A DNA stretch of 64,000 nucleotides from Candidatus Omnitrophota bacterium (GCA_043805415.1 JAZDHZ010000021.1:8127-72126); one strand, 5' to 3'. Shown: positions 14,718-62,354, counted from the stretch's first letter. Numbers and translations are program-made. Notes: generated by a model from the sequence alone, not told the origin.

Positions 14718-14718
14718 T

Positions 14719-15821: not shown

Positions 15822-15849
15822 AATTTAGCGCGCGATAACAACGAACTTT

Positions 15850-18388: not shown

Positions 18389-18418
18389 GACTAAAAATAA
18401 TATATTCAGGGACTAAAT

Positions 18419-24770: not shown

Positions 24771-24789
24771 AAAATATTTATGCTGAGGG

Positions 24790-26517: not shown

Positions 26518-26551
26518 TAAAACATATAACCAAAAATAGAAAACAATCAAA

Positions 26552-27793: not shown

Positions 27794-28064
27794 TGCAAAT
27801 AATTGAGTTGCATTATTGTTCGACAAAATTTTAGTCTAATTATGCTGAAATTTGCCGATTGAGTATTGACAAACCTTTATAAATATGATATATATATGAC
27901 ATATATGATAGTTAGAATTGTTTTATAGTCATTTTAAAGACAAACATCTTCCCTTTAAAAAAGCCTTTTCAAAGGAATGAATTGGTGACCTATGGGTATT
28001 GAAAAGATCTTAATATCTTGCCTGGTTAAATCACAAAATGGATGTATAATATTTAGGTTGATTC

Positions 28065-29663: not shown

Positions 29664-29675
29664 AAATCTACGATT

Positions 29676-30416
29676 ATGGAAATATTGTTAATAAAAAAAT
29701 TTAAAAAAACTTTTACCGTTATTGTCATTATCGGGGTAATTTGTGTATGCCTGATAATCGCGATCCTGGCAGCCGGAGTTTTAAATTCGACTTTAAATTT
29801 AAAAGTTTCCGAACTGGAAAAAAAACTTATAGTCTATAAGAAAGCTTTGGGCAGCAATCCGGAGCAAGCGATAGATATCAAAAAATCCTTAAAGCAACAG
29901 TTATTAGCTGAAAATGAACAGATTAATAATCTTTTTATGAAAACAAGGGAAAGTAATCCTGTGACCACTACGCCGCTTTCATTTAAACAATTTTTGTTTA
30001 GTACTCAGGATAGATTAAAATCTAAGGCGCTTAAGAAAAAGATGTCCTTACCTGTTTGGCTGGGATTTGATGAATATAAAATTAATGTTCCTGATGCTGA
30101 TAATGCTGATGTTTTGATTAAAGAGCTTGCTATTGTCGAAGAGATTGTTAACGGAGCATTGGCTAGTGAGGTGAGCTCTATTGAGAGCATTAAATTATCA
30201 CACCAAAGACTTAGCGTAATAGTTGCTGAGCAAAAAATTAAATATTTGCCTATTGCTTTATCAATAAAATCTGATTCCGGGCAGATGAAAGCTTTTTTGA
30301 TGAATATTTCAAAGCTGCAAGGTATTTTTTCGATCAAACAATTAAAAGTAAAGTGCCTTGATGAAAATAAAAATCAATTGTCAGCGGATATAAATCTGAA
30401 GTTTATCGAGATATGA
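29676..30416 (+). CDS. PilO-like inner-membrane pilus assembly protein
   Basis: N-terminal TM VIVIIGVICVCLIIAILAAGVL, coiled coil, and position after pilMN. Confidence 0.5.
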   Translation: MEILLIKKFKKTFTVIVIIGVICVCLIIAILAAGVLNSTLNLKVSELEKKLIVYKKALGSNPEQAIDIKKSLKQQLLAENEQINNLFMKTRESNPVTTTPLSFKQFLFSTQDRLKSKALKKKMSLPVWLGFDEYKINVPDADNADVLIKELAIVEEIVNGALASEVSSIESIKLSHQRLSVIVAEQKIKYLPIALSIKSDSGQMKAFLMNISKLQGIFSIKQLKVKCLDENKNQLSADINLKFIEI

Positions 30417-31123
30417 AAAATATGAATAAGATATATGATAATTTAGAAAAAATAGCCTGTTTTACGATGGTAAGTATTTTGATAATCAGCAGTTATTTTT
30501 TCATTACAAGCAATGCTGAGTATAAAATATTTGTAGAGCAAAAGAAAAGTGAATTAGCAGATATGGATAGGCAATTTGTGGCAAAATCAGCTGAGCCGGG
30601 AACTTTACTATCAAGAATTGATGAAAAAACAAAGATTGATTTACTGAAAGTAAAAAGGAATATTTTTGCTCCGTTTAAGGATGATGATGAGAAAAGACAA
30701 TATTCTAATAATTCCGTGTTGGAGGTATTGGATATTGCCTATAAGCCATTGGCCTTTCAATATCAAGGAAGAATAATTTATCCTAATGGACAGATTGTAG
30801 CGCAGATTAATGCTGATAATAAAAGCTATTTAGTAAAGACTGGTTCAAACTTGGGAAAATACAAGGTTGGGCAATTGGATAAAGATTCAATTAATTTAAA
30901 AACTAAACAAGGTGAAAATGTAACTATTAAATATCTGCAGACAGCGTTTAGTGATGAGTTAATGGCAAAAATAAAAGAAAGTATTTCTGGAGAGATTGAA
31001 ACAGTTTATAAAAACAGTGATATATACGGCTATAAGGTGCTTGACATTGAGGAAGATTGTGTGATATTATCTAAGTCAGGACAGCACCTAAGGTTACAGA
31101 AAGGAATGGTGCAAGCAAAATGA
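30413..31123 (+). CDS. PilP-like protein (N-terminal anchor, beta-rich C-terminus)
   Basis: Position between the pilO-like gene and the secretin. Overlaps both neighbours by 4 nt. Confidence 0.4.
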   Translation: MKNMNKIYDNLEKIACFTMVSILIISSYFFITSNAEYKIFVEQKKSELADMDRQFVAKSAEPGTLLSRIDEKTKIDLLKVKRNIFAPFKDDDEKRQYSNNSVLEVLDIAYKPLAFQYQGRIIYPNGQIVAQINADNKSYLVKTGSNLGKYKVGQLDKDSINLKTKQGENVTIKYLQTAFSDELMAKIKESISGEIETVYKNSDIYGYKVLDIEEDCVILSKSGQHLRLQKGMVQAK

Positions 31124-40858: not shown

Positions 40859-41332
40859 ATGATTACTTATTGCACCAAGGGGTGCGATTTTTTTATAAAA
40901 TATTACATGAGGCTGAAAGTGAAATTTACTAAATATGGGTTTTTAATAATCCTAGGTTTATTTTTCATGTTGGTATTAGCCAATAAAGGGCTCACTGAGA
41001 ATATGAATAATTCTGGCTCAGATAGAGTTATTTTTGAACAGCCCATCTCTTATGACGATGTTCTGAAAATGAAAGAAAAAGTCGAACAACTCGAAAAAGA
41101 ACAAAAAGAGAAGAATCCTGGAGCAATCGATCCTATGGGTAATAGTAATAGCTCTGATGAAAACTCTAAAATGCTTATAATGCTTAAAGCATTACTCAGT
41201 GCAATGGGCATAGATGCACCGGAAGATATGCCATTACCGGAAACAGACAATGCCCAAAGTAAAGATACAAATAACTTTAAACAGTGGGGAGCCCAGCACA
41301 ACTGGAAGGGTTTAAGCATTGAGCAAAGATAA
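40859..41332 (+). CDS. Small exported/anchored hypothetical protein inserted between prfA and prmC
   Basis: Hydrophobic segment YGFLIILGLFFMLVLA (likely start at M 40907), followed by a low-complexity acidic tail. Confidence 0.4.
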   Translation: MITYCTKGCDFFIKYYMRLKVKFTKYGFLIILGLFFMLVLANKGLTENMNNSGSDRVIFEQPISYDDVLKMKEKVEQLEKEQKEKNPGAIDPMGNSNSSDENSKMLIMLKALLSAMGIDAPEDMPLPETDNAQSKDTNNFKQWGAQHNWKGLSIEQR

Positions 41333-45958: not shown

Positions 45959-48900
45959 ATGATTACCGGTAAAAAACTTCAAATATTTAAAAAAACACTG
46001 GCCTTGGTTTGCGGGTGGAGTTTCCTTTGCCTAAATAATGCGCTGGCTTTTAGCTGTCTTGATTATGCTCAGCAGGATAATTGTTTGAGTCCGCAGGTGA
46101 ACATTGCTAGTACGTTTTTTGTCGATAATTTTCAGAAAATCACAAGAACTCCGCGTTGGCTTAGACCGGATATTGTTGGTTTCTTTGGCGGTACAGGAGG
46201 CAATATTGCCGGCAATGTTTTAAGTTTCAGCGATTTAAATCAGTTCTTAACGGAAAAATTATTTGTCAGTTTTATTATCTCACCGCATGATGATGGCGGT
46301 TCTTCTGTTATTCTGCAGAGAGTTTTATCGGAATATCTTGGGTATACTCTTTCTCCAGGGGACACAAATAATATATTCTCCGGACTGACCACCAGTTATT
46401 TTAAAAAGCGGGTTCTGAGAACGCGTTTTGAAGAGAATATCTCCGGAACACTTTTACGCGATAAGCTGGAAAAAATTATCACCGCTACTGAAGATTTGGC
46501 CAGGTCCAGGCCTTTATTTTTAGATGAACAAAAAGAAAAAACAGTTAGCAAAATAACGATTGAAGGTATTGATTATCCAGTCAGTTTTGACTCACAGAAT
46601 AAGCGGTTTATATTTAATCAGGGTAAAGAAGCGGGGATTAATCAGAAGCTAATATTTGAAAAAGAGCAATTTATCATTAAACAATATGAGGGGAAAACAA
46701 TATTGTGTTTCATCCCTGATGAAAATAATTCAGAAGCCTTAACTTATGACTTGAAAACTAATTCTAATTGGGCACAGTTTAAACAGCAAATTCTAGAACT
46801 TGCCCAAAGTTTTGATCAGGAGTTTATAAACCCGAAAACTAAAACTTTGCCGGGAAAAATTGTTGATATCTCTTCCGGAAGCATGGGGAATTTTTTAATT
46901 GCCGCTAAGATGATTCAAACAGGGGTTTATGATCCTAAAAGAAAAGATTTAATTGATCAGGTTAAATACCACCAGGGTATTCAGGAGCTGTGTGATTTGC
47001 TGGATATTGATAATGGCTTTGTCAGTTGTTCAACTTTTGATCCGGCGATTTTGTATGTAAAACTTGCTTCAATTGCTATTGAAAAAGACAATAAAGCTTT
47101 ATTGCTGGATGGGAATAATGAACAGACTTTAAAGGCCAGCGGAATACTGATTGATAAAATAGACCGCGGCCGCGGAGTATTTGATATTAATTGCGAGGGT
47201 TCGGAAAATTCTCGGCGCACAAAGTTTGGTTTAAAAATCCGGGAATATATTGAAGGTTATGTATACAGGAATAAACCGGGCCGGGAAGACAGTTATTCAG
47301 AAGTGAGTTTGCCTTTAGATGTACTGGCGCAATATCCGGTTACGCTTAGCTATAATGGGCTTGAACTGAGTCTAAAAATCGCGAATCAGAAAATAGTTAG
47401 TCTGGACTATGAAAAAGATGGGAAAGATGAAAAAGTTAAAAAAGTTGGCAAAATTACTCAAGCGCAATTAGCAAAGCTTGAATCAGAAGGGCGGATTATT
47501 TTTGCTTTGCCGGAAACGGTTGCGTCGGCTTCAGCTACGGAGATGCGAAGCTTGCCGCGATTTTATATTGACGCAAAGTCAGGAAACTTGCAGATAGTTC
47601 TGGATACTAAGGGAATAGGCGTTGGGCTTTCAATAAATGGAGTGCAGTTAAAAATAAAAAGCCGTCTGGTTATTGAGCAGACAAATATAACCGAGGGGCT
47701 GCATCACTGCGGAATAATTGATTTTGGTTTTTTAAATAATGTTAAGCCGCGGGTTAACAAACATAGCCTTTTAGCGATGGAGAATGCTCCTTTGTTAATT
47801 ATGGGGCCAGGCAGTCAGTATACAAGCTTAATGTCGCTTTTACTTATTCCGGAAATCGTCGAAGCTTTGAAGCAAAGGGTTGCCAGCGGTAAAGAAAATC
47901 TGTTTATTTTTAATCCCTTAAGAGATAATGAAACTGTTGATAGTCAAAGTGTAAGGGATATTATTAGTGATATTGAGCGGATTACAGGAGTTGAGTTTGG
48001 GGAAATATTTAATAATGCGGTAGTTAATGATAGTCAAGCATTTCTGGAAGATTTTTCTAAAGCTGAAGACGATTTTAGGGCATTGGGAGAATCATCTCCT
48101 GATTATTTCGCGGCAAAACAATTATATGAAAAATATTTTAAAATGAACAGCTTAATGAATGAGATGAAAGATAAAAAAACATCAAAGACAAGAAAAGCAT
48201 CGAGTTTTTCCAAGCTGGCAAAATATTCAAGAGGTAGAATTAGTTTTGACGAAAATGATTTAAACGCGCTGATAGGCCAGGGTGTGGAAGTTTATAAAAC
48301 AAGAGTTATCTTGAGCTCCCGGGAAGTTCGCGAAAAAGGAAAGGCGCTGAAGGAGGAATCGATAAGATATGATAATGCTCAGATCGCGAATATTATTGAT
48401 CAAATACTTTGGAAGCGGGGAGCGGTATTTAAGCAGGATGAAAAATTAGGCAGACTCAGGCAGCAGCTTATTGACGAATATTTTGACGGAGATGCCGCTG
48501 AATTTGACAAAGCAAGCGAACGGATAAGAAATGAAGGGATCTTGAAATCAAGGAGTCCGGCCGCTACAGCAAGGTATATATTTGAGCGTTTGGTAAAAGA
48601 GGATTTTGTTTTTTCTGATAAGCAGCAGAAAGCTCTTTTGGGAAAGAAGGTAATAATTACTAATCTTAAGCATACGCTTTGTATGAAAAACGGGATTACG
48701 CCAAAAATAAAAAAAGAGCTAGAGGTGTTTTTAAAGAACAATGGTAAATTAATCGTTATTAGCGGTTTTGAAGTTGGAGAGATGAAGCGAAGGCTGCTTG
48801 ATTTTGTGGATAAAAGTTTATGGAGTTCAATTGTTTTAGTGGCTAATTACGGAACAGAGGCATGGTACTGGGATCAGCAGCAAGCAAAGCTAATGAGCTT

Positions 48901-49630
48901 ATTTACTTCTTTTTATGAAGAAGCCGGTATTACTGATGAGCAAAGAGCCAGATGGCAGCAAATAGTGGATAATACTGTGTTAGAGTATGGTCTGGATAAA
49001 CCGCTGAGAACTAAGTCCGTAAGTATGGATAAAACCATCGCGGAAGTTGAAGATCGGGGAACAATGATTGCTTTACGCTTGGGATCGCGGCTTTATCTGC
49101 ACAGCTTAAACCTGATTACCCTGGCAAATAGGCGCTTGAACGAACAGTATTTACCGTTGATTGGGGCTGATGGTGTTTTGCGTACTCCGATGCTTGAGCG
49201 TTTGAATAATATGTTTGCCAAATATGATCTGCCGATAAGCGCTGTTTTGGGCGGAACAGGCACGATTAATACCATGGTTAAAAAAGCAGCGGATAAAGGC
49301 GATGTTATTCAGCGGGTATTATGGGCAGCTAAAGATAAGGGATTGCTGCCCAGGGAAAACCTTGAGCAGCAGCTGCTGATTATGGGTAAGGGCAATTATG
49401 AAATAGCCAAAAAACTGGAATCTGATCAGGTGCCTTGGCTGGTGTTTCGGCTGCCGCGTCAATCTACTAAATATATGATTGAATTTAAGAAAAAGTATGG
49501 GGTCCAGGCTGCTGAGGTGTTTTTAGAACAGCTGAATCTTATCAAAAGCTCTCTTGAAGCAGCTAAAATATTGATTAAAGTATATGATTCTGTTCCTGGT
49601 AATTTAGATTCAATCGGTCAGGCGATATAG
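45959..49630 (+). CDS. Giant (1223 aa) exported YvcK/CofD-family (UPF0052 'gluconeogenesis factor'/LPPG-transferase fold) protein with a ~450-aa insertion and a ~500-aa C-terminal extension
   Basis: Signal peptide TLALVCGWSFLCLNNALA|FS. The family N-terminal half is IVGFFGGTGGNIAG...FIISPHDDGGSSVILQRV...LSPGDTNN. The family C-terminal half appears ~450 aa later (LLIMGPGSQYTSLMSLLLIPEIVEALK ... NAVVND). Confidence 0.55.
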   Translation: MITGKKLQIFKKTLALVCGWSFLCLNNALAFSCLDYAQQDNCLSPQVNIASTFFVDNFQKITRTPRWLRPDIVGFFGGTGGNIAGNVLSFSDLNQFLTEKLFVSFIISPHDDGGSSVILQRVLSEYLGYTLSPGDTNNIFSGLTTSYFKKRVLRTRFEENISGTLLRDKLEKIITATEDLARSRPLFLDEQKEKTVSKITIEGIDYPVSFDSQNKRFIFNQGKEAGINQKLIFEKEQFIIKQYEGKTILCFIPDENNSEALTYDLKTNSNWAQFKQQILELAQSFDQEFINPKTKTLPGKIVDISSGSMGNFLIAAKMIQTGVYDPKRKDLIDQVKYHQGIQELCDLLDIDNGFVSCSTFDPAILYVKLASIAIEKDNKALLLDGNNEQTLKASGILIDKIDRGRGVFDINCEGSENSRRTKFGLKIREYIEGYVYRNKPGREDSYSEVSLPLDVLAQYPVTLSYNGLELSLKIANQKIVSLDYEKDGKDEKVKKVGKITQAQLAKLESEGRIIFALPETVASASATEMRSLPRFYIDAKSGNLQIVLDTKGIGVGLSINGVQLKIKSRLVIEQTNITEGLHHCGIIDFGFLNNVKPRVNKHSLLAMENAPLLIMGPGSQYTSLMSLLLIPEIVEALKQRVASGKENLFIFNPLRDNETVDSQSVRDIISDIERITGVEFGEIFNNAVVNDSQAFLEDFSKAEDDFRALGESSPDYFAAKQLYEKYFKMNSLMNEMKDKKTSKTRKASSFSKLAKYSRGRISFDENDLNALIGQGVEVYKTRVILSSREVREKGKALKEESIRYDNAQIANIIDQILWKRGAVFKQDEKLGRLRQQLIDEYFDGDAAEFDKASERIRNEGILKSRSPAATARYIFERLVKEDFVFSDKQQKALLGKKVIITNLKHTLCMKNGITPKIKKELEVFLKNNGKLIVISGFEVGEMKRRLLDFVDKSLWSSIVLVANYGTEAWYWDQQQAKLMSLFTSFYEEAGITDEQRARWQQIVDNTVLEYGLDKPLRTKSVSMDKTIAEVEDRGTMIALRLGSRLYLHSLNLITLANRRLNEQYLPLIGADGVLRTPMLERLNNMFAKYDLPISAVLGGTGTINTMVKKAADKGDVIQRVLWAAKDKGLLPRENLEQQLLIMGKGNYEIAKKLESDQVPWLVFRLPRQSTKYMIEFKKKYGVQAAEVFLEQLNLIKSSLEAAKILIKVYDSVPGNLDSIGQAI

Positions 49631-49711: not shown

Positions 49712-49740
49712 TTGCAATAAGACATAAAATATGGTATAAT
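49712..49740 (+). promoter_or_regulatory. Near-consensus promoter TTGCAA-N17-(TGg)TATAAT for the RSH-like gene
   Basis: cttgcaa taagacataaaatatgg tataat. Confidence 0.55.
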
Positions 49741-49774
49741 TTATAACATTTCAAAAAGGCTTAAAAAGTGAGAT

Positions 49775-52741
49775 ATGTTTATGTCGCAAATTCAAAAAAA
49801 CATTAATCGTAACTTTTCCTATCTACTGATATTTCTGCTTATTCAGGGCATGATTATTAGTCCTGCTTTGGCATTAAATAATCCTGTTTTGCCCGAACAT
49901 TTAAGCCCGCGGATAAATATTAACTATACCGCATTTTCGGATTTGATCAAAACCTCCTATTCTGATGCTTCCAAAGCTCTTGCTGAGCTTCCGGAAACAA
50001 ATGAACTGAATTTACTAGATATCAGCTATCAAAAAAAACAGAGAGCTATTTTGCAAGATGAAATTATTGATCGCTTTAAGCAGAATTATCCGGATAGTCT
50101 AGAGCAGTTAGAGATGATTAAAGTTTTTTTTGGAATAGCACTAGAGCATTATGAAGAGCAACAGTTTGAATCAGGAGAGTTCTACTATAACCATTGTCTA
50201 GAAGTAGCTGCAATTGCCGCGAAAAATAAAGCGGGATTTATCGAAATCCTGGCAGCTATTTTTCATCGCATGCCAACCAATAAGATTAATCCAGTGATTG
50301 CGTCTTTGGCTAAAACCGCAGGAATTGGAAAAAATAAGAGTGAATCATTCCGCAAATATGAATTAGTTGAAATTAATGGACTAATTAAGAAATTTTCCAA
50401 AATAGCTGATCTTAAATACTATGCGCATTCGCAGGGAGCAAATTCTATTGAAAATTTTATGGGTGCTGTACTTAATATGATGGAGGGGGATCCTAGGATC
50501 AGGCGTCTTGTTTTTGCGGACAAAGAGGCCTCAATTGCTCATGCGTCTGAGACTGAAAAAGCGGATATTGTTAAAGAAATCCAAAGTATTTATGGGCCTT
50601 TTGCCGGACGTTTTGGCTTGTTTGAAATTAAAAAAGAATTAGAAAATTCTATTTTTAAAATTCATAATCCAAAAGGTTATGAGCTGGTAATGAAAAAAGT
50701 ACGCAATACTTATGGTGTGGATTATAAAGATCTTAATGATTCCTTGGATAAAACTAAAGCGCTTATTCAGAAAATTGCTGATGATAATCAAATTGATGCG
50801 ATTATATTGTCGCGGGTAAAGGCTCCTTACCGAATTTATGTGAAAGAAAAAATCGCGGGAAAAGGTAAAGGGCAAAAAGATACTTTATACGGAGTTGATA
50901 CGATTGGGATTAAGGTTATTTGTAAGACTGAGGATTGTTTTTATCAAATGACCACTCGGATCCGACAGGCTTTAAATGATAAAAAGCTGGGGAATTGGAA
51001 AATAGGGAAAATTAAGGCCATAGCATCAGGTATAACTTATATTAATTTGGTGGAAATTGAAGGATTGGGTAATTTAGAAGTGCAGTTTCTTACCAAAGAG
51101 GCTGATGATTTGCGAGAAATAAATTTTGCCCATTGGTCGTATGAGATAGCTAGACAAACGAATCGCAAACAGAAATTTGACAAAGTAGAGGATTTTGGTT
51201 TTTACCAATTGCGTGAAATGTATCAAAACGCGATAGATGATCCTGAGCGTAAAGATGTGGATATTAATACTGTGACAGAGGAGTATTTTAAAAGTGTTTA
51301 TGACCATAACAAAAAATGGGTTTATATTTTTGAAAAGTCTTCAGAAATTATTGATGGACGAGAAGTTGATGTTGTTAAACCAAAAAGATTGGCAAAAGGC
51401 GCGAATGGCCCTGTGTTTGCCGCTCAAACAGGAGTTGATTTATTTGATAAGAATTATGATGGCTTAGTTTTTTATGAATGGCGCGGTTCAAAACTTGTTC
51501 CAAAAAGAAGACAATATAATGATCTTAATCAGCTTAAAGACGGTGATATTGTAGCTGTAAAAACAACTGCGGATGGTTTGCTTGATAAATTAGAGAAAGA
51601 TAAAGGCTACGAAGCTAATCTGTTTAGCAGCATAAGAGGGTTTTTGCGTTCAACAATACTGCTCGCGCAAGTAGGTTTGTCGGAAAGTGACAAGGTCCGA
51701 TATTATAAAAATGCGCAGTCTTTTCTTAATAAATCTTTTAGTCAAAAAGGAATTGTTTGGGGTAAAAGTGTCCAGAGCAAATTTCCGCAAAACGCGAAAT
51801 ACATGCAAAATTTCCTCAATGAATTTGCGGTCTCAAAAAAACTTAAAAATTCTGATGAGCTTTTAATGGGTTTAGCTTTAAAGCTTATTAATAGTTCAGA
51901 GGTTGTTGATTGGGCTAAAGAACGCGGAGCGGATCTTTTGAATACAATACAGGTTGATGACCCAGGGATTAAGGCGCAGGTTGAAAATATCTATGGTTCA
52001 TTAGATAAACTATTTATTGAAGTCGGGATTGGTGAAATCAGCGTAGAAAAGGTAATTAAAAAACTGAGAGATCAGCAAAACGTTAATGTAAGTATGATGC
52101 CTACAATATCCGGAGATTATTCAGGAAGATTTGAGTACAGTATTGAAGTCAGAGAGCCTGATAAAAAAGCAATTTCAGCAAGAACCCGAGAAATTAAAGC
52201 GCGGATAAAAGAAATATTAAAAACTCAGGGGATCGAGCTTGGTGAGCAGTCTTTTAATGATAAGAAAAGCCGAAAAATTAAAGGTGGCTTTCTGGTTAAC
52301 TTTGAAATTCCAGTAAGATATGAGCAGCTTCCTAATATAAGAACAGCTTTGCTTTCAGGTTTAGAAACAAGTATCAAAGTAAAGACCAAAAGGGAGAAAA
52401 AAGACAAAGAAAAGGCTTTGACGTCTATTGGTCTTATTATTAATGTGAAAAACAAAAAGGCAGTTAGTTCAATAATTAAAAGATCAGTTAATATCGGGAT
52501 CAATGCGCTCAAGAATTATGATTTTGATGAAAAAAATGAGCAGCTGTCTTGTGTCATTGAATATGACCAGATGAGTTATGATTTAACGTCGATTCTTAAG
52601 GTTCTTAATGTTTCGCTTAAAAACGTTACGCTTGCTGATGAAAACCAAGGTTTTATTGAAGCCGCGGAATTGCAAAAAAAGTTAAAAAGAAAACAAGCGC
52701 AACCACTTGAAAACGCTAGTTTAATTGAATCGGCGATATAA
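49775..52741 (+). CDS. RelA/SpoT-homolog (RSH)-like large protein with an N-terminal Sec-type signal / TM anchor and a degenerate hydrolase motif
   Basis: N-terminus FSYLLIFLLIQGMIISPALA|LN. HCLEVAAIAA...AAIFHRMP resembles the HD-domain region, but HD is replaced by HR. IYGPFAGRFGLFEIKKELENSIF corresponds to Rel 'LYAPLAHRLGI..IKWELEDL'. Synthetase-like block RVKAPYRIYVKEK...DTIGIKVIC...EVQFLT...AHWSYE. Confidence 0.55.
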   Translation: MFMSQIQKNINRNFSYLLIFLLIQGMIISPALALNNPVLPEHLSPRININYTAFSDLIKTSYSDASKALAELPETNELNLLDISYQKKQRAILQDEIIDRFKQNYPDSLEQLEMIKVFFGIALEHYEEQQFESGEFYYNHCLEVAAIAAKNKAGFIEILAAIFHRMPTNKINPVIASLAKTAGIGKNKSESFRKYELVEINGLIKKFSKIADLKYYAHSQGANSIENFMGAVLNMMEGDPRIRRLVFADKEASIAHASETEKADIVKEIQSIYGPFAGRFGLFEIKKELENSIFKIHNPKGYELVMKKVRNTYGVDYKDLNDSLDKTKALIQKIADDNQIDAIILSRVKAPYRIYVKEKIAGKGKGQKDTLYGVDTIGIKVICKTEDCFYQMTTRIRQALNDKKLGNWKIGKIKAIASGITYINLVEIEGLGNLEVQFLTKEADDLREINFAHWSYEIARQTNRKQKFDKVEDFGFYQLREMYQNAIDDPERKDVDINTVTEEYFKSVYDHNKKWVYIFEKSSEIIDGREVDVVKPKRLAKGANGPVFAAQTGVDLFDKNYDGLVFYEWRGSKLVPKRRQYNDLNQLKDGDIVAVKTTADGLLDKLEKDKGYEANLFSSIRGFLRSTILLAQVGLSESDKVRYYKNAQSFLNKSFSQKGIVWGKSVQSKFPQNAKYMQNFLNEFAVSKKLKNSDELLMGLALKLINSSEVVDWAKERGADLLNTIQVDDPGIKAQVENIYGSLDKLFIEVGIGEISVEKVIKKLRDQQNVNVSMMPTISGDYSGRFEYSIEVREPDKKAISARTREIKARIKEILKTQGIELGEQSFNDKKSRKIKGGFLVNFEIPVRYEQLPNIRTALLSGLETSIKVKTKREKKDKEKALTSIGLIINVKNKKAVSSIIKRSVNIGINALKNYDFDEKNEQLSCVIEYDQMSYDLTSILKVLNVSLKNVTLADENQGFIEAAELQKKLKRKQAQPLENASLIESAI

Positions 52742-52784
52742 AACATTGTTTTTAACACTATATTTACTTTTTTTATCATTATGC

Positions 52785-52800
52785 TATAATATTATTCATG
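52785..52800 (+). promoter_or_regulatory. Extended -10 (TGcTATAAT) ending 7 nt before the ATG, implying a leaderless mRNA for the 52798 gene
   Basis: atgctataat attattc ATG. Confidence 0.35.
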
Positions 52801-53202
52801 AAAGATTCTAAAATTCCTTGGTCTAAAGAAAAAGCCAGCAAACATCACAAAATAGCCTCAGGACTGATTATCTTAAGCGGGGTTTATGGCTTATACTTGA
52901 GTATTGATGATATTATTATTTTGGGTAATCGCTTAAGTACTTTTGTCCTGCCTTATTTATTTAATTACTTTGGGTTTTTTCTGTCAATGTTTCAGATTTA
53001 TACGGCAATTTGTTTTTTAAATAAACAAAAATGGGCAATAAATGTTATTTTATGGATTTTTCTGATCAGGTTGATTCTAGGGTGTTTTGATATAATCGAG
53101 GCTGTTCCAGCAATCTTTTTATTACCATATGTATTGTTTCTTATTTCTAATAAAAGAGCGGGTAGTATTTTTTCAGATACTAATTCGGAACTTAACCCTT
53201 AA
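52798..53202 (+). CDS. Small polytopic membrane protein (3-4 TM), hypothetical
   Basis: Hydrophobic segments IILSGVYGLYLSI, LPYLFNYFGFFLSMF and VILWIFLIRLILGCF. Confidence 0.45.
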   Translation: MKDSKIPWSKEKASKHHKIASGLIILSGVYGLYLSIDDIIILGNRLSTFVLPYLFNYFGFFLSMFQIYTAICFLNKQKWAINVILWIFLIRLILGCFDIIEAVPAIFLLPYVLFLISNKRAGSIFSDTNSELNP

Positions 53203-56992: not shown

Positions 56993-57622
56993 ATGACTGA
57001 CAAGTTAGAGAAACTGACTAAACAGATTTATGATGAAGGTATCGCAAAAGCTGACCAGCAGGCAGAAAAAATAATTAAGGCGGCAGAAGAGGAAAAGAGA
57101 AAAATCCTGCGCGCGGCGCGAAAAGAATCAGAAGATATTATTTCAGTCGCGCATAAAGAATCAGAAGAATTAAAGCATATGGTCAATTCTGAGCTGCGGA
57201 TGGCAACCCAACAGTCCTTGGCCCTGCTTAGACAAAAAATCACAGAATTAATTTCCGTGAAAGTTACCACCGGCGCAGTGGAAGGGTTTTTTGATGACTC
57301 GGATTTTTTAAAGAAAATCCTGGAGATTGTGATGAAGGAATGGCTTGGCTCTGGCTGTCATCAAGGACAAGAGTTTTATTTAAAATTACCCAAAAAGGTT
57401 CAAGCAGAGATACAAGATCATTTCTTTATCGCTGGCAAGCAAGAACTGAATAAAGGCTTAAAAATAGAGTTTGATGAAAAGATAAAAAGCGGTTTTATAA
57501 TCACGCCCAAAGACGGCAGCTATAGAATTGGGTTTACAGAAGATGATTTTAAAGCACTGATTCAGTATTTTCTCCGGCCGAGGATGACCAGATTTCTTTT
57601 TGGAGAAAAGGCAAATGAGTAA
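56993..57622 (+). CDS. V/A-type ATPase subunit E
   Basis: ~200 aa with an N-terminal K/E/A coiled coil (IYDEGIAKADQQAEKIIKAAEEEKRKIL), and first position in the operon. Confidence 0.7.
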   Translation: MTDKLEKLTKQIYDEGIAKADQQAEKIIKAAEEEKRKILRAARKESEDIISVAHKESEELKHMVNSELRMATQQSLALLRQKITELISVKVTTGAVEGFFDDSDFLKKILEIVMKEWLGSGCHQGQEFYLKLPKKVQAEIQDHFFIAGKQELNKGLKIEFDEKIKSGFIITPKDGSYRIGFTEDDFKALIQYFLRPRMTRFLFGEKANE

Positions 57623-58454
57623 TTATTATTATTTAATTTCTTCATTGCCTGAATTGCGTTTAGATGATTATAAAGAGCCGTATCGGGTTAATGAGTTTAT
57701 TGACGAACTTTATGCTAATCTTGAATCTGAGCACGCGGAATATGTTCAGGACATACTATGCATGAATGACAATCCGAATATAGTCGATATTGTTTCCGGC
57801 AGCGGTAATACTTGGCTTGACGCAAGGGGCAATTGGACTTTTGAAGAACTGAAATCTTTTTTTGATAATCCGGAAGCTTTGGATGAAAAAGAACACGCGT
57901 ATATTCTGGGTTTTATAAACTCCTTGGCTGGATTTAAAAAAGAGGAACAAAAAATAAACCGCTATAAAGCTGAGGAATTACTTTTGGGCGGGTTTTACGC
58001 GAAAATGATGCGGCATAAAAATTCTTTTATCCGTGATTATTTCAGTTTTGATTTTAAGCTGAGAAATGTTTTAATGGCGATAAATAAAAGAAAATTCAAT
58101 CTCGATAAAATTCCCTTATTAGAAGTGGGTGAACATGAAGTTGTAAGAAAACTGCAAACATCCACGGCCAATGATTTCGGCTTGTCCCTGAGCCTTGATT
58201 ATATGCAATCCTTATTAGCTGCTTTTGAAAAAGATGATATTGTTTATCGCGAAAAGTTTATTGATCAGCTGCGCTGGGAGAAAATAGATCAAATTAATAC
58301 TTTTTCTTATTTTAAAGTTGATGTTTTACTGGGATATTTAATTAAATTAATGATGGTAGAGCGATGGATTGCTATGGGAGCAAGCCGCGGACATGAAGCC
58401 TTGGCTAAGATATCAAAAGTAGATCCAGGGATTTTAAATAAAAAATTTAATTAA
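57600..58454 (+). CDS. V-ATPase operon protein between E and A (DUF2764-like / putative C-subunit analog)
   Basis: Positional call only. Bacteroidetes/Chlamydiae V-operons carry an uncharacterised gene at this slot. Confidence 0.4.
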   Translation: MEKRQMSNYYYLISSLPELRLDDYKEPYRVNEFIDELYANLESEHAEYVQDILCMNDNPNIVDIVSGSGNTWLDARGNWTFEELKSFFDNPEALDEKEHAYILGFINSLAGFKKEEQKINRYKAEELLLGGFYAKMMRHKNSFIRDYFSFDFKLRNVLMAINKRKFNLDKIPLLEVGEHEVVRKLQTSTANDFGLSLSLDYMQSLLAAFEKDDIVYREKFIDQLRWEKIDQINTFSYFKVDVLLGYLIKLMMVERWIAMGASRGHEALAKISKVDPGILNKKFN

Positions 58455-58516
58455 TTTTAAAAAAATCGAATAAGGGTTTTAGCTTTAAAAATAAAAGAAA
58501 TAAATTCGGAGGAAAA

Positions 58517-60274
58517 ATGCGAACAAAAGGACAGGTTGTCGGGATAGTATCAAATCTGATTACTATAGAAGTTGATGGACCGGTTAGTCAGAATGAAATA
58601 TGTTATATCATGCTTGACGAAACCAAATTAAAAGCTGAGGTTATTAAAATAAATGGAAAGAACGCCTTTGCTCAGGTGTTTGAAAGTACCCGCGGCTTAA
58701 AAGTAGGCAGCCTGGTTGAGTTTACTGATCATTTGCTGGAAGTTGAACTCGGACCTGGGCTGTTATCACAAAAATATGACGGTTTGCAAAATGATTTAGA
58801 AGCAATGACCGGAGTTTTTTTAAAACGCGGAGAAATGACCACTCCTTTTTCCTATGAAAAAAAGTGGGAATTTATCGCTTTAGCAAAAAAATCAGACAAA
58901 GTGCAAGCTGGAGACTGGTTGGGAGAAGTTAAGGAAAATTTTATTAGCCATAAGATAATGGTACCGCTAAAGCTCGAAGGGATTTGGCAAATAGATTCTA
59001 TCGCGTCTAAAGGTGAATATACCGTAAAAGATACTATTGTTGTGTTAAGAAATTCTCAGAAAGAAACTGTTGATGTTACCATGACCCAGCGCTGGCCAGT
59101 TAAAGTGCCGATTCGGGCTTATGCCAATAAACCGATCGCGTTTAAAACTTTGCAGACAGGGGTTCGGCTGATTGATACAATCAATCCGATTGTTGAGGGA
59201 GGAACTGGCTTTATTCCCGGACCATTTGGCTGCGGAAAAACAGTTTTACAGCATATTATTGCTGCTAATGCCCAGGTTGATATGGTAATTATCTGTGCTT
59301 GTGGTGAACGGGCTAATGAAGTGGTCGAGATATTTAAAGAATTTCCTGAGCTTGATGATCCGAATACTGGCCGCAAATTAATGGAAAGAACCATTATTAT
59401 TTGCAATACATCCAATATGCCGGTTGCCGCCCGTGAGGCTTCGGTGTACACGGCCATGACCATTGCTGAATATTACAGACAGATGGGAATAAAAATATTG
59501 TTATTAGCTGATTCGACATCACGTTGGGCTCAAGCATTAAGGGAAATGTCAAATCGCATGGAAGAACTTCCTGGCCCAGACGCTTTTCCCATGGACCTTA
59601 CCGCGATAGTAGCAAATTTTTATGCCAGGGCAGGAATGGTGGAATTAAATAATGGCCAGACCGGATCAGTAACTTTTCTTGGCACAGTGAGCCCTGCCGG
59701 AGGAAATATGAAAGAACCTGTGACTGAATCAACTAAGAAGGTGGCAAGATGTTTTTATGCTTTATCCCAGCAGAGAGCGGATAGCAAGCGATATCCTTCA
59801 ATTGATACCATAGAAAGTTATTCTAAATATCTGGAGTATAAAGAAGTGCAGGAATATTTAGAAGAGCACTTTGAACCGCATTGGATTGAGAAAATTGCTT
59901 ATATCAAAGATATATTACTCCGCGGTAAAGAAGCCTATGATCAGATAAATATTTTAGGTGATGATAGCGTGCCGATTGAATATCATCAGCGTTTTTGGAA
60001 ATCAGAATTAGTTGATTTCGGGTTTTTACAGCAAGATGCTTTTGATCCTGTTGATAAAGCTACTTCTTTAGAAAGACAACGTTATATGCTGGATATTATT
60101 TATAATATTTGTGACGCGGAATTCAAATTTGACGGGTTTACAGAAGTGTCGGCTTATTTTAAGAAAATAATTAACATTATAAGGCAGATTAATTTTTCAG
60201 AATTTCAAAAGGAAGAGTTTAAAAATTTTGAAGATGAATTGCAAAGCACTTTAATGGAAAGGAAACTATCATGA
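58517..60274 (+). CDS. V/A-type ATPase catalytic subunit A
   Basis: GPFGCGKTVLQH P-loop, the non-homologous insert region, and 585 aa. Confidence 0.95.
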   Translation: MRTKGQVVGIVSNLITIEVDGPVSQNEICYIMLDETKLKAEVIKINGKNAFAQVFESTRGLKVGSLVEFTDHLLEVELGPGLLSQKYDGLQNDLEAMTGVFLKRGEMTTPFSYEKKWEFIALAKKSDKVQAGDWLGEVKENFISHKIMVPLKLEGIWQIDSIASKGEYTVKDTIVVLRNSQKETVDVTMTQRWPVKVPIRAYANKPIAFKTLQTGVRLIDTINPIVEGGTGFIPGPFGCGKTVLQHIIAANAQVDMVIICACGERANEVVEIFKEFPELDDPNTGRKLMERTIIICNTSNMPVAAREASVYTAMTIAEYYRQMGIKILLLADSTSRWAQALREMSNRMEELPGPDAFPMDLTAIVANFYARAGMVELNNGQTGSVTFLGTVSPAGGNMKEPVTESTKKVARCFYALSQQRADSKRYPSIDTIESYSKYLEYKEVQEYLEEHFEPHWIEKIAYIKDILLRGKEAYDQINILGDDSVPIEYHQRFWKSELVDFGFLQQDAFDPVDKATSLERQRYMLDIIYNICDAEFKFDGFTEVSAYFKKIINIIRQINFSEFQKEEFKNFEDELQSTLMERKLS

Positions 60275-61620
60275 GCCGCCAACCACCAGCATTTAAAACG
60301 GTCTATACCAAGATCGAGCAGATCACCAAAGCGACCTGCTCATTAAAAGCTAATGGTATCGCTAATGAGGAAATGGCAACAATTGATGGCCGCCCGGCTC
60401 AAGTAGTTAAAATTCAAGGTGATTTAGTTACCTTGCAGGTTTTTTCCGGAACGCAAGGTATTGGTACAGATGTGGATGTTATTTTTATGGGAGAGCCGCC
60501 GACATTAAGAGTAGGCGATGATTTATCCGGGAGATTTCTTAATGCCTATGGCCAGCCAATTGATGGCGGCCCTGATCTGGAAGGAAAAAAAACCCCGATT
60601 GGCGGGCCAAGTGTTAATCCAGTGCGTCGGGAACAGCCGTCAGAATTAATCAGTACCGGGATCGCCGGGATTGACTTAAACAATACCCTGGTTACCGGAC
60701 AAAAAATACCTTTTTTTGCTGATCCTGACCAGCCTTATAATCAGGTGATGGCCGATGTTGCCCTGCGGGCTAAAGCTGATAGAATTATCCTTGGCGGTAT
60801 GGGACTTTCCAATGATGATTATCTTTATTACCGCAGAGTTTTTGAAGATGCCGGTGTTTTAGAAAAAATCACTTGTTTTATTAATACCAATGATGATCCT
60901 CCGGTAGAAAGATTATTAGTTCCCGACATGGTGCTAGCCGCGGCTGAATATTTTGCGGTTGAAAAAAAGGAAAAAGTATTGGTTTTACTTACTGATATGA
61001 CATTATTTTGTGACGCATTGAGTATTGTTTCAAACCGAATGGATCAAATTCCCAGTAAGGACAGTATGCCGGGATCGCTGTATAGTGATTTGGCTAAAAT
61101 ATATGAAAAAGCAGTACAATTTAAAGAAGGCTCAATCACGATTATTGCTGTAACTACACTTAGCGGTGGAGATATTACTCATGCTATTCCGGATAATACG
61201 GGTTATATTACAGAAGGCCAGTTATTTTTGCGGCGGAATACCGATATATCTAAAGTTATTATTGATCCGTTTAGAAGTCTTTCCAGACTTAAACAATTAG
61301 TTATTGGTAAAAGAACAAGAGAAGATCATCCTCAGGTTATGAATGCCGGGGTTAGGCTTTATTCTGACGCGGCAAATGCTAAGACAAAAAAAGAAAATGG
61401 TTTTGATCTGACTGATTATGATGAACGGGCATTAAAATTCGCTTATGATTATGCTCAGGAATTATTGGCCATAGATATTAATATTGATGTGGATAAGATG
61501 TTAGATACAGCCTGGAGATTATTTGCTCAATATTTTCAAAAGGATGAAATTGCCATAAAAGAAGAAATAATGAGCAAATACTGGCCGAAAAATATCGAAG
61601 GCGTAAAAAGCAGCGTATAG
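60271..61620 (+). CDS. V/A-type ATPase subunit B
   Basis: 449 aa. Homologous to A/beta but without a P-loop. 4-nt overlap with A. Confidence 0.9.
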   Translation: MSRQPPAFKTVYTKIEQITKATCSLKANGIANEEMATIDGRPAQVVKIQGDLVTLQVFSGTQGIGTDVDVIFMGEPPTLRVGDDLSGRFLNAYGQPIDGGPDLEGKKTPIGGPSVNPVRREQPSELISTGIAGIDLNNTLVTGQKIPFFADPDQPYNQVMADVALRAKADRIILGGMGLSNDDYLYYRRVFEDAGVLEKITCFINTNDDPPVERLLVPDMVLAAAEYFAVEKKEKVLVLLTDMTLFCDALSIVSNRMDQIPSKDSMPGSLYSDLAKIYEKAVQFKEGSITIIAVTTLSGGDITHAIPDNTGYITEGQLFLRRNTDISKVIIDPFRSLSRLKQLVIGKRTREDHPQVMNAGVRLYSDAANAKTKKENGFDLTDYDERALKFAYDYAQELLAIDINIDVDKMLDTAWRLFAQYFQKDEIAIKEEIMSKYWPKNIEGVKSSV

Positions 61621-61763
61621 CGGACAGCGTTTAGCGAATAGAAAAAGCAGGAAAAAGTTATCGAGTTAACGCGTTTACGTGTTTGCGGGTTAAAAAATAA
61701 AATCAGTTAGTTTTTTACGCAATACGCGATACGCACGACGCAATACGAAACAGAGGATCAATC

Positions 61764-62354
61764 GTGGCACAGATACAATATAATAAAACTGCTCTGCTTA
61801 AGATCAATAAAGACTTGTCAATGCGTCAAAACGCATTGCCTGTATTACGCAGCAAAGAATCAGCCTTAAGAGCAGAAACAAGAAAAATCAGAGCTAAGAT
61901 CAAAGGCTTAGAGCTAAGCCTTGAACAGTTGAAAGCAACGCTTGAGCCGATGGAGCGATTATGGGTAGAATTTCCGGATATTGTTAAAATTGAGAAGATT
62001 AACTTTGTGCAGAAAAAAGTAGCGAGTATTGCTGTGTTTAATATTGAGGGAATTGATTTCAACACAGAAGATATAAGTTTTTTTGCTTATCCCTCATGGG
62101 TATCGCAGGGAATAGAAATTATTAAAAACCTTTTATTTTTACAAATGGAATTGATTAACGAAAAAAATATTCTGGATAGTGTTGAATATGCCCGCCGTAA
62201 AACTACCCAGAAAGTCAATCTCTATGAAAAAGTACAGATACCATTTTTCGAGGAATCAATTCGCAGGATTAAACGGTTTTTAGAAGATCAGGATAACCTG
62301 TCTAAATCTTCACAGAAAGTAATTAAAAACCGGATGGAGGCAGCCTTGATATGA
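61764..62354 (+). CDS. V/A-type ATPase subunit D (central stalk)
   Basis: MAQIQYNKTALLKINKDLSMRQNALPVLRSKESAL corresponds to the D-subunit N-terminal helix. 196 aa. Confidence 0.8.
   Translation: MAQIQYNKTALLKINKDLSMRQNALPVLRSKESALRAETRKIRAKIKGLELSLEQLKATLEPMERLWVEFPDIVKIEKINFVQKKVASIAVFNIEGIDFNTEDISFFAYPSWVSQGIEIIKNLLFLQMELINEKNILDSVEYARRKTTQKVNLYEKVQIPFFEESIRRIKRFLEDQDNLSKSSQKVIKNRMEAALI

Follow-up and report, generated by a model that had tools for sequence, protein, structure and literature searches.

The stretch of DNA analysed here (the window, 64,000 nucleotides from a metagenome-assembled genome of Candidatus Omnitrophota) carries a gene for a long RelA/SpoT-homologue (RSH)-like protein, whose slot among housekeeping genes (rnhB ... 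rny-ymdB) is fixed. On its 5' side, this gene is flanked by rnhB or by a CofD-like gene, the latter occupying the slot only in the window, L004 and L006 among the loci compared. On its 3' side lie the genes for a small membrane protein and for 5-FTHF cyclo-ligase. The features around the RSH-like gene are the following:

45959..49630, plus strand: CofD/YvcK-like protein of 1223 aa, 5' of the RSH-like gene (Pfam CofD, E 4e-14), with a signal, LSPQVNI at residue 43 and the tail SIGQAI
49712..49740, plus strand: sigma-70-type promoter found by pattern scan, with -35 TTGCAA (49712-49717), a 17-nt spacer and extended -10 TGG-TATAAT (49732-49740)
49741..49774, plus strand: 5' leader, in which a multi-locus alignment shows an A-rich conserved motif (TTTATAA...AAAAAGnCTTAAAAAG); weak Shine-Dalgarno GTGAGA
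49775..52741, plus strand: RSH-like coding sequence, 988 aa, stop codon included (ORF call and RSH homology searches)
52798..53202, plus strand: hydrophobic (multi-span, by hydropathy) protein of 134 aa, always adjoining the RSH-like gene by synteny

The 134-aa protein matched no family in Pfam, NCBIfam or PADLOC. Neither an antitoxin or immunity gene nor a PAAR, Rhs, LXG or MuF delivery domain was found among the neighbours with Pfam, and PADLOC returned nothing.

The sigma-70 promoter with an extended -10 element described in the initial annotation is present. Promoter-like patterns occur at chance level in the window (26 versus 24.9 in shuffles, i.e. no enrichment), but this one is supported as real because its -35 and extended -10 pair is kept 5' of the RSH-like gene in six loci of Omnitrophota. 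In L001, L004, L005, L006 and L007, the pair preceding the ortholog reads TTGCw / TGGTATAnT around a non-conserved 17-nt spacer. The RSH-like gene would be transcribed from this promoter of its own. The 5' leader (49741..49774) matched no Rfam family.

The 988-aa ORF genuinely encodes a long RSH, though a very divergent one; the RSH superfamily has been surveyed previously (PMC3153485). The product of the ORF is labelled by NCBI as 'HD domain-containing protein [Candidatus Omnitrophota bacterium]' (P0001, 100% identity). Pfam HD_4 (PF13328) matches it with 42 bits (E 9.9e-11), exceeding the cut-off of 27.2, and TIGR00691 spoT_relA aligns over aa 120-504 (E 3.2e-25), the scores remaining under the curated NCBIfam cut-offs for TIGR00691 (88.6 versus 499.2 bits), PRK11092 (66.9 versus 947) and PRK10872 (37.1 versus 728). 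Searches with phmmer against PDB Rel/RelA (E 1e-10), hhalign against Rel (probability 99.5) and Foldseek against full-length SpoT, RelA and Rel (E ~1e-14) also place homology far above chance, at an identity to Rel of ~20-25%. The membership of the RSH family proposed from motifs is hence borne out, and the quoted motifs were all located: IYGPFAGRFGLF at aa 271-282, SRVKAPYRIYVKE at 346-358, DTIGIKVI at 375-382, EVQFLT at 435-440 and AHWSY at 452-456. The protein is organized as follows:

49775..49873, plus strand: signal-peptide-like leader, aa 1-33 (n-region with K8 and R12, core ~aa 13-29, c-region SPALA)
49901..49921, plus strand: LSPRINI motif, aa 43-49, within a disordered linker, aa 34-89 (leader alignment)
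50042..50779, plus strand: pseudo-hydrolase (HD) domain, aa 90-335 (Pfam HD_4; residue map against PDB Rel)
50792..51169, plus strand: synthetase (SYNTH) domain, aa 340-465 (residue map against PDB Rel, family invariance, fold match)
51311..51574, plus strand: TGS-like beta domain with insertions, aa 513-600 (hhalign; strands 515-597 in both AlphaFold2 models)
51575..52084, plus strand: all-helical region, aa 601-770, the first part of which aligns to the Rel alpha-helical domain (ELxxALG..G motif)
52085..52609, plus strand: two ferredoxin-like (ACT/RRM-like) modules, aa 771-865 and 880-945 (secondary structure in both models; Foldseek)
52721..52738, plus strand: C-terminal tail LIESAI-COOH (ortholog alignment)

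The HD domain is matched by HD_4 in 10/10 RSH-like family members, and its fold matches Rel N-terminal domains in Foldseek. H140, H164 and D249 (H53, H77 and D144 in RelSeq) are retained, and RelSeq residues D78, E81, D82 and N148 are replaced family-wide, by R165, T168, N169 and S253 in the window protein. The change from HD to HR seen initially is real (H164-R165), and the ED pair is gone too, its replacement by T168-N169 being invariant in orthologs. With Mn and catalytic residues lost, as in RelA, the hydrolase is predicted to be dead.

The SYNTH domain shares with Rel, RelA and SpoT the donor-site signatures RxKx7K, DxxGx[RK], ExQ and AHW. Thus, R347, K349, K357, D375, G378, E435, Q437, H453 and W454 are kept, and the corresponding RelSeq positions (R241, K243, K251, D264, G267, E323, Q325, H342 and W343) are invariant in ~18 family members of 22-66% identity. 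The initial annotation had named a pure pseudo-enzyme devoid of the synthetase catalytic residues as a case that would speak against it; this case does not apply, donor-site and catalytic residues being present. The fold matches the N-terminal domains of RelSeq, Rel Tt and Rel Mtb (TMt ~0.6-0.66 in Foldseek), and RelA_SpoT (PF04607) is matched at E<=0.01 by eight of ten family members, with a best E of 7e-10. The changes concern R269, which is K380 in the window clade, R327 of the EIQIRT motif, which is L439, the G-loop, where NGYQSLH becomes SGITYIN (family consensus GxIYx[DN]L, with the Tyr two positions later), and the acceptor site, where RelSeq R295, K304, N306, Y308 and H312 are N407, I416, S418, I420 and N424. 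As the acceptor (G-loop) residues are not conserved, synthesis of (p)ppGpp is not to be assumed, and the replacement of R295, K304, N306, Y308, H312 and R327, together with R269 to K in the window clade, means that catalysis could be lost or redirected. The replaced acceptor-site residues and R327, as well as a RelA_SpoT score of the window protein under the gathering cut-off (18.7 bits versus 27), count against an exported enzyme.

The C-terminal ~450 aa had been described as bearing no TGS or ACT signature, which holds for single-sequence Pfam searches but not for hhalign, which recovers the TGS, nor for AlphaFold2 and Foldseek, which recover ACT-like folds. When aligned alone, the C-terminal half matches the Rel TGS and the start of the helical domain (hhalign probability 93.4, E 2.5e-7). 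The AlphaFold2 model of aa 497-988 (pLDDT 82) has the B. subtilis Rel C-terminal region as top match (6htq_x, E 1.8e-4), followed by tandem ACT domains such as the regulatory subunits of aspartate kinase (E 5e-3). Both modules are modelled as beta-alpha-beta-beta-alpha(-beta), a structure-based assignment for which no match was found at the sequence level. By profile alignment and modelling, the C-terminal half is a divergent Rel-like region made of TGS, helical and double ACT-like parts. The tRNA-CCA-sensing His of the RelA/Rel TGS aligns to the invariant G553, and the Rel-invariant C614, H635 and C639 columns of the zinc finger (ZFD/RIS) have no counterpart, this region being helical or ACT-like in the models. 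The TGS, helical and ACT-like domains have known roles in the cytoplasm (ribosome, tRNA and metabolite sensing), and their being kept counts against export.

As read from its sequence, the N-terminal segment shows all the features typical of a Sec/SPase I signal peptide. The basic n-region, core and SPALA|LN junction pointed out initially are real and kept in every ortholog and distant family member; orthologs were thus found to retain the signal without exception. Hydropathy reveals a single hydrophobic segment, at the N-terminus, with a KD19 of 2.2 and 28 uncharged residues in a row, and cleavage is predicted after A31 or A33. In 26 leader-bearing related proteins, the n-region has a charge of +1 to +5 almost without acidic residues, a small-x-A site preceded by Pro or Gly is kept near residue 30-32, and the net charge over the 15 aa after the core is ~0 or negative. 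This distribution of charges (26/26 proteins) predicts an N-in orientation with the protein bulk outside the cytoplasm. In AlphaFold2, the leader forms a helix (2-33) followed by disorder, pLDDT being <50 at aa 25-78. A signal-like N-terminus was detected in 22/163 hits, none of which (0/22) retains LHDxxED, a motif kept by 94/141 hits lacking such an N-terminus. Classical sequence rules therefore predict export, which would apparently make the protein the first case of export among multi-domain members of the normally cytoplasmic RSH family. On this basis, the gene may code for a Sec-exported, RelA-like (hydrolase-dead) long RSH of an Omnitrophota-specific family, a reading to which we give about an even chance.

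Past the signal-like segment, L43, S44, P45 and F54 are invariant across the leaders of RSH-like and CofD-like proteins. An LSP-type motif is also found in the distant members P0018-P0024, P0047, P0033 and P0083, and leaders combining a signal with this motif occur too on larger proteins with RSH modules. At the other end, I988 is invariant, the RSH-like family ending in -SAI, -SSI, -TAI, -RSI, -TSI or -FSI and the CofD-like neighbours in -QAI or -PAI; no other plus-strand ORF of at least 100 aa in the window ends in AI. Hence LSPxhxh at ~residue 43 and an -[SA]I tail are common to the RSH-like protein and to an unrelated CofD/YvcK-like protein. The CofD match of the latter is partial, and its C-terminal 540 aa show no family recognisable with Pfam.

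The hydrophobic segment could otherwise be an uncleaved anchor holding the RSH body in the cytoplasm, where the protein would act as a membrane-tethered stringent factor, the lineage's own monofunctional (p)ppGpp synthetase. The fairly long core (KD19 2.2, 28 consecutive uncharged residues), a long-RSH domain order that is complete down to TGS and ACT-like parts, the housekeeping slot fixed in all lineages and the conserved promoter of its own are in line with this idea, as is the prediction of a TM anchor and a cytoplasmic body for many of the long proteins of Omnitrophota (10.64898/2026.06.07.730766). However, the positive-inside rule gives the opposite orientation in all 26 leaders, the small-x-A site with its preceding Pro or Gly is conserved, and the hydrophobicity of the CofD-like leader (max KD19 1.58) is too low for a TM anchor. 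Moreover, a hydrolase-dead synthetase would require a separate hydrolase, the tRNA-sensing His and ZFD are missing, and the protein evolves far faster than any neighbouring housekeeping gene, so that such a tethered factor seems unlikely.

The RSH-like family comprises ~12 clusters at 50% identity, all of whose members combine a signal-like N-terminus with a dead hydrolase, and homolog searches found it in Omnitrophota only. Between genomes, the RSH-like proteins of the slot are 60, 49, 44, 27 and 27% identical, whereas the corresponding figures in those genomes are 91-96% for RNase Y, 92-94% for MurA and 83-90% for 5-FTHF cyclo-ligase. The gene is by far the fastest-evolving of the slot (27-60% versus 75-96% for neighbours). 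Within the protein, HD, SYNTH and TGS are best conserved and the ACT-like modules evolve fastest. Fast divergence in a fixed housekeeping slot is what one would expect of a protein that is extracytoplasmic or engaged in interactions. That the gene belongs to the core locus, is inherited vertically, lacks an immunity-like partner and is not a mobile toxin cassette counts against export. The same divergence, the many lost canonical residues and the reduced genomes of the phylum (PMC10066038) might also be taken as those of a decaying remnant, an ancestral rel of a host-dependent lineage drifting under relaxed selection, with an incidental hydrophobic stretch. Nevertheless, the ORF is intact (~900-1,020 aa) in every lineage, the promoter is conserved, an invariant subset persists (leader L43/P45, donor-site residues, G553 and terminal I988), and leader and tail motifs are common to another protein family. 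Decay is therefore already disfavoured and appears very improbable.

A more serious competitor is an exported pseudo-enzyme, in which the RSH scaffold would be re-used without catalysis as a ligand-binding, structural or docking module of the envelope or surface. Such a role would agree with the dead hydrolase, the loss of the G-loop, R295, K304, H312 and R327, the missing TGS His and zinc finger, the scarcity of ATP outside the cytoplasm and the partial, half-familyless character of the CofD-like neighbour. It would also cover the RSH-NTD-like modules found inside Omnitrophota proteins of 1,100-8,000 aa, which are further degenerate (HK; E-[MI]-M for E-Q-R). Nonetheless, the invariance of R241, K243, K251, D264, E323 and Q325 over 22-66% identity is hard to explain without nucleotide or Mg2+ binding, SYNTH is among the best-conserved domains, and exported small alarmone synthetases (SAS) are active at low substrate concentrations (PMC12691689). 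A non-catalytic role is accordingly considered possible, though clearly less probable than an exported, hydrolase-dead long RSH.

If the latter is correct, the pre-protein would cross the membrane via Sec by its N-terminal signal peptide, probably with cleavage around residue 31-33, which would bare a disordered N-terminal arm carrying the short strand-like motif LSPxhxh. This motif and the small-hydrophobic C-terminal tail, which the CofD-like neighbour and other RSH-module proteins also carry, are probably sorting, docking or processing signals. The mature protein would consist of a folded pseudo-hydrolase acting as scaffold and of a SYNTH domain with an intact ATP-binding/Mg2+ centre, most likely retaining pyrophosphate transfer from ATP. 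Since changes affect the acceptor pocket as well as the zinc finger and the tRNA-sensing His of the TGS, acceptor nucleotide and regulation would be unlike those of ribosome-dependent RelA. The protein would be active beyond the cytoplasm of the producer, whether in the periplasm, at the surface or on or inside a host cell. In favour of this reading, the window also encodes two T2SS/T4P machineries, including a secretin, and the family is confined to a phylum for which a predatory or parasitic life has been proposed. That ATP is normally absent from the periplasm counts against export.

Long-RSH alarmone enzymes are cytoplasmic, ribosome-coupled stress sensors. With Rel, RelA and SpoT, the RSH-like protein shares the domain order (HD, SYNTH, TGS, helical region and C-terminal ferredoxin-like domain) and the fold, the Foldseek alignments with full-length SpoT (7qpr) and ribosome-bound RelA (5kpv) extending over 900 columns. 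It differs from them by its predicted signal peptide, disordered LSPxhxh arm and -[SA]I tail, its remodelled G-loop, the invariant Gly replacing the TGS His, two ACT-like modules in place of ZFD and RRM, its fast evolution and its restriction to Omnitrophota. Some long RSHs are known to carry N-terminal targeting peptides, namely the plant and algal chloroplast RSH1-3 and CRSH, some with one dead catalytic domain. The RSH-like protein resembles them in this peptide on a long RSH and in transfer across membranes to another compartment, as predicted here. Nevertheless, their eukaryotic transit peptide leads to a compartment with ATP, GTP and ribosomes, whereas the bacterial Sec-type signal would lead outside the cytoplasm.

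An extracytoplasmic alarmone synthetase-like enzyme had been called unusual, which stands for a long RSH but no longer for small ones, since ~600 exported small alarmone synthetases (EAS, including SaEAS, VpEAS and AaEAS) were described in 2025, the existence of such enzymes with Sec signals being experimentally established (Ahmad et al., mBio 2025; PMC12691689). That survey deliberately left out 'large, multidomain RSH proteins' (PMC12691689). The RSH synthetase fold, a Sec-type signal peptide (predicted here) and the lack of an adjacent immunity gene and of a Tat motif are common to both, and the EAS structure 8vx3 is among the fold matches, weakly (Foldseek E 5e-3). EAS belong to the small single-domain SAS and are relatives of Apk1/Tas1, whereas the RSH-like protein has 988 aa with pseudo-HD, TGS and ACT-like parts, a core-locus gene, a non-canonical acceptor site and a putative activity. 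The T6SS effector Tas1/Apk1, the toxSAS FaRel2 and CapRel also possess a divergent SYNTH domain, which in their case serves outside normal stringent control, and the acceptor specificity of toxin RSHs is known to be altered, towards (p)ppApp or the tRNA CCA end (see also PMC7229694). These toxins are single-domain proteins with PAAR/Rhs, LXG or antitoxin partners, which the RSH-like locus lacks, encoding instead a full long-RSH architecture. The best reading is that of a long version of exported small alarmone synthetases, a putative RelA-like pyrophosphokinase with a remodelled acceptor site.

If true, exported alarmone chemistry would reach the multidomain RSH class, export of small single-domain relatives having been known since 2025, and would do so through a phylum-wide family in an uncultured phylum of tiny bacteria for which predation or parasitism has been proposed (PMC10066038). 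The N- and C-terminal motifs, occurring as they do on enzyme-like proteins of unrelated families, would provide a searchable signature, which could lead to the set of effectors that Omnitrophota export or to a novel sorting pathway. As a bolder and rather doubtful extension, a dedicated Omnitrophota sorting route (Sec signal, LSPxhxh or FALRPxAxxLS arm and -[SA][IVA] tail) might export long RSH, CofD/YvcK-like and multi-kilo-residue RSH-module proteins, the long RSH being a core, rapidly co-evolving effector delivered to the host or into it, where a constitutively hydrolase-free pyrophosphokinase, by making an alarmone-type nucleotide or by modifying another acceptor, would arrest growth.

The RSH-like ORF (49775..52741) codes for 988 aa. 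Its product is identical to an NCBI entry whose start is placed two codons further on, named 'MAG: HD domain-containing protein [Candidatus Omnitrophota bacterium]'. Pfam HD_4 (RSH-type) is matched at aa 122-282 with 42 bits, which exceeds the cut-off, and RelA_SpoT at aa 346-457 with 18.7 bits, under the cut-off of 27. NCBIfam TIGR00691 spoT_relA covers aa 120-504 (E 3e-25) far under the trusted score, phmmer against PDB sequences matches Rel and RelA (E 1e-10 to 1e-8), and a profile of five orthologs spans aa 90-710 against the Rel profile with a probability of 99.5. The motifs quoted in the initial annotation are all found at their positions, and the case for RSH homology is strong.

The C-terminal ~450 aa had been described as bearing no obvious TGS/ACT-type signature, which is explained by single-sequence scans showing nothing there. 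Indeed, the C-terminal half has no meaningful match in Pfam and NCBIfam single-sequence scans or by profile against PDB sequences. The description holds for such scans but not for profile-profile and fold comparison, the only approaches that recovered the TGS, helical and ACT-like domains. When the entire protein is modelled with AlphaFold2 (pLDDT 75), the alignments to full-length SpoT (7qpr) and to RelA on the ribosome (5kpv) exceed 900 columns, with E ~1e-14, and the C-terminal half alone matches the Rel TGS and the start of the helical domain (hhalign, probability 93.4, E 2.5e-7). With aa 497-988 modelled on their own (pLDDT 82), the top match is the C-terminal region of B. subtilis Rel (6htq_x, E 1.8e-4), followed by regulatory subunits of aspartate kinase with their tandem ACT domains. 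The architecture is thus composed of a signal, a disordered arm, a pseudo-HD domain, SYNTH, TGS, a helical region, two ACT-like modules and a tail. In RelA and Rel, deacylated tRNA is sensed at its CCA end by the TGS His, as established from the RelA H432 and Rel H420 mutants. This position aligns to an invariant Gly (G553) in the RSH-like protein, and the zinc-finger Cys/His are not present, so that two canonical sensor features, the TGS His and the zinc finger, are missing.

Catalytic residues were mapped from PDB alignments (RelSeq numbering first, RSH-like protein second).

Hydrolase site, kept: H53=H140, H77=H164, D144=D249
Hydrolase site, changed: D78->R165, E81->T168, D82->N169, N148->S253
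Synthetase donor side, kept: R241=R347, K243=K349, K251=K357, D264=D375, E323=E435, Q325=Q437, AHW
Synthetase donor side, changed: R269->K380, R327->L439
Synthetase acceptor side, none kept: R295->N407, K304->I416, N306->S418, Y308->I420, H312->N424

The degeneration of the hydrolase HD dyad to HR (H164-R165) is borne out by these alignments, and further hydrolase residues are also changed. Because D78, E81, D82 and N148 are replaced, the hydrolase site is dead, like that of RelA. In the acceptor site, the family has a conserved Tyr shifted two positions later (GxIYx[DN]L). Given the loss of so many canonical residues, a scaffold that is exported but does not catalyse is a plausible alternative to an enzyme. 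A general absence of synthetase catalytic residues, taken by the initial annotation as the mark of a pure pseudo-enzyme, is nevertheless not what was found: the donor-side set is kept, and it is invariant across ~18 aligned relatives at 22-66% identity, all of which lack the hydrolase Asp, Glu and Asn. Such a distribution favours retention of the ATP/Mg2+ site in the family, and it speaks against hydrolase activity as well as against a GDP/GTP pocket of canonical type. In the best-supported reading, the pyrophosphate-donor site is strongly constrained, and the acceptor pocket and regulatory sensors have been remodelled.

The protein contains one hydrophobic segment (aa 13-36). The suspected signal peptide (PALA then LN) is confirmed as a tripartite segment by hydropathy and sequence, with an n-region carrying K8 and R12, a hydrophobic core, and a c-region SPALA followed by LN. 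Orthologs retain it: the tripartite leader is present in all five close orthologs, in farther RSH-like members found by exhaustive profile search, and in the CofD-like neighbours. Over 26 leaders, the n-region has a charge of +1 to +5 with acidic residues nearly absent, a small-x-A site lies near residue 30-32, and the 15 residues after it are neutral or acidic. These leaders resemble Sec/SPase I substrates, and by the positive-inside rule the protein body is predicted to lie outside the cytoplasm. A signal-like N-terminus occurs in 22 of the 163 retrieved RSH relatives, none of which keeps LHDxxED, and 94 of the 141 relatives without such an N-terminus keep it. From these sequences we infer export, and likewise cleavage, catalysis, substrate and site of action. 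In the best-supported reading, the protein would be a long RSH that is exported and hydrolase-dead. The rival, a stringent factor in the cytoplasm tethered to the membrane by the same segment, is disfavoured by the charge distribution of the leader and the conservation of a cleavage-type site, and also because the sensors for tRNA and ribosome are missing and the hydrolase is dead.

The CofD-like and RSH-like proteins share no homology, yet both their ends are alike. The CofD-like protein has a signal-like leader, then LSPQVNI at exactly residue 43, and its C-terminal end SIGQAI compares with LIESAI in the RSH-like protein. Both end features are kept by orthologs in both families, with tails -SAI, -SSI, -TAI, -RSI, -TSI and -FSI in the RSH-like family and -QAI and -PAI in the CofD-like one. 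All other ORFs within the window lack the LSP leader and the -AI tail. The wider occurrence of the motif was drawn from proteins retrieved by the RSH domain and from ~190 kb of Omnitrophota loci, in which it is restricted to RSH-like and CofD-like ORFs. A profile of nine RSH-like and CofD-like leaders had no match at E<=10 among 5.8 billion proteins. In the RSH-like protein, the motif sits in a stretch disordered by AlphaFold2 (pLDDT <50, aa 25-78). Several larger proteins with RSH-NTD-like modules have a signal and TLSP at the start and -SV, -SA or -AA at the end. We read the shared ends as putative common sorting, docking or processing signals.

The CofD match covers aa 571-694 alone of the 1223-aa CofD-like protein (45959-49630, +), whose leader takes the form of a signal plus LSPxxNI and whose tail is -QAI. 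Near aa 77 there is a GGTGG motif, with an insertion of ~490 aa between it and the CofD match, and no family is matched by the last 540 aa.

The RSH-like gene occupies the same slot in all six loci, behind trmD-rplS-rnhB and, in three of them, the CofD-like gene. Where the contig extends, it is followed by genes for a 134-aa membrane protein and 5-FTHF cyclo-ligase, then rny and ymdB. The sigma70 promoter with an extended -10 box proposed upstream is upheld in part: the pattern is not enriched over shuffles, but TTGCw, 17 nt and TGGTATAnT are kept in 6/6 loci with a variable spacer sequence. The promoter is accepted because of this cross-locus conservation, as pattern statistics are not significant in AT-rich DNA; the phylogenetic footprint indicates that the gene has its own promoter. 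A leader motif follows, which might be regulatory; no Rfam family matched anywhere in the window, this leader included.

49741-49774, between the -10 box and the RSH-like start codon: conserved A-rich 5'-leader motif (TTTATAA..TTTnAAAAAGnCTTAAAAAG), also in the Omnitrophota loci L001, L004, L005 and L006

Identity to the window protein between genomes was compared for five genes.

RNase Y: 91-96%
MurA: 92-94%
5-FTHF cyclo-ligase: 83-90%
CofD-like protein: 57-77%
RSH-like protein: 60, 49, 44, 27 and 27%

Because of this comparison, the RSH-like gene is considered a vertically kept core-locus gene evolving far faster than all surrounding genes. Within it, constraint is strongest in HD, SYNTH and TGS and weakest in the ACT-like modules and tail. 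Such divergence might be ascribed to a decaying remnant, but the length is intact, the family has invariant residues, the promoter is conserved and the end motifs are shared with the CofD-like protein, all of which disfavour decay. A mobile toxin cassette was ruled out by the synteny of the locus across all lineages, and a defence system was rejected, with 0 PADLOC matches for the RSH-like, CofD-like and 134-aa proteins.

52798-53202, +: strongly hydrophobic multi-span protein of 134 aa, directly 3' of the RSH-like gene wherever the contig reaches (that of locus L007 stops short)

A promoter-like site of its own, including TG, precedes the gene of this protein at 52763-52790. The protein shows 51-63% identity across genomes and has no Pfam, NCBIfam or PADLOC match.

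When 1.84 billion cluster representatives were searched exhaustively, only 12 clusters reached E<=1e-30, and all taxon-assignable members of the family are Candidatus Omnitrophota. Among them is a second subfamily, found in Ca. Orphnella occulta, with a leader FALRPxAxxLS and a tail C-x-x-A-A. RSH-NTD-like modules, with HK replacing HD and E-[MI]-M replacing E-Q-R, are also found within very long retrieved relatives (P0025, P0036, P0031, P0033, P0037, P0083 and P0104). P0025 has 5805 aa and bears the annotation 'phosphoglycerate kinase, partial [Candidatus Omnitrophota]', and P0036 has 7967 aa and a cluster mate named phosphoglycerate mutase. Another relative with the module, P0040, comes from Candidatus Saganbacteria; the module is thus not strictly confined to Omnitrophota.

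Export of small alarmone synthetases was shown experimentally in 2025, in a survey of exported alarmone synthetases (EAS) that explicitly ended short of multidomain RSHs (PMC12691689). If exported, the RSH-like protein would be in effect their multidomain counterpart, although it is not small and single-domain as EAS are. It clearly has fold and architecture in common with canonical Rel/RelA/SpoT but scores under their curated cut-offs and departs from them in the hydrolase residues, G-loop and ZFD. RSH classification papers (PMC3153485, PMC7229694) mention no signal peptides or TM segments for long RSHs, RelA, SpoT and ppGpp are absent from the Omnitrophota genome papers, and a signal-bearing long RSH is described in neither; among the papers searched, none joined Omnitrophota with ppGpp. 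The phylum has been proposed to be predatory or parasitic (PMC10066038). This lifestyle, the very fast evolution and the T2SS/T4P genes and secretin of the window fit the export reading but do not prove it.

8546-18958, +: first T2SS/T4P-type cluster, with a T2SSE ATPase carrying MshEN and a C-terminal PilZ, T2SSF and pseudopilin-like ORFs
13421-14284, +: MA-type peptidase with a signal peptide, within the first cluster
21756-33057, +: second T2SS/T4P-type cluster, with two Pfam-supported T2SSE ATPases, T2SSF and a secretin
31120-33057, +: secretin with an STN domain, in the second cluster
40859-41332, +: protein of 157 aa, hydrophobic at its N-terminus, without a family match
9-2972, +: ORF of 987 aa next to the edge of the window, without a Pfam match at E<=0.001

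One T2SSE ATPase of the second cluster is PilB-like with MshEN, and the other is shorter and PilT-like. The 157-aa protein has 41-43% identity between genomes, whereas its neighbours have 67-94%. The boundary of the window may have removed the 5' part of the 987-aa ORF. The window is gene-dense, with ~37% G+C, and its gene-like ORFs, counted from 150 aa upwards, all lie on the + strand. Each 2-kb bin of 1-64000 has a positive GC skew, and the cumulative skew climbs monotonically. Together, the all-plus ORFs and this skew fit a single replichore with transcription strictly co-oriented with replication. F-type ATP synthase genes lie at 3802-8419 (+; alpha/beta subunit 4508-6001) and V/A-type ATPase genes at 56993-62354 (+; A and B subunits 58517-61620, D 61764-62354), and both types appear to be present within the same 64 kb.
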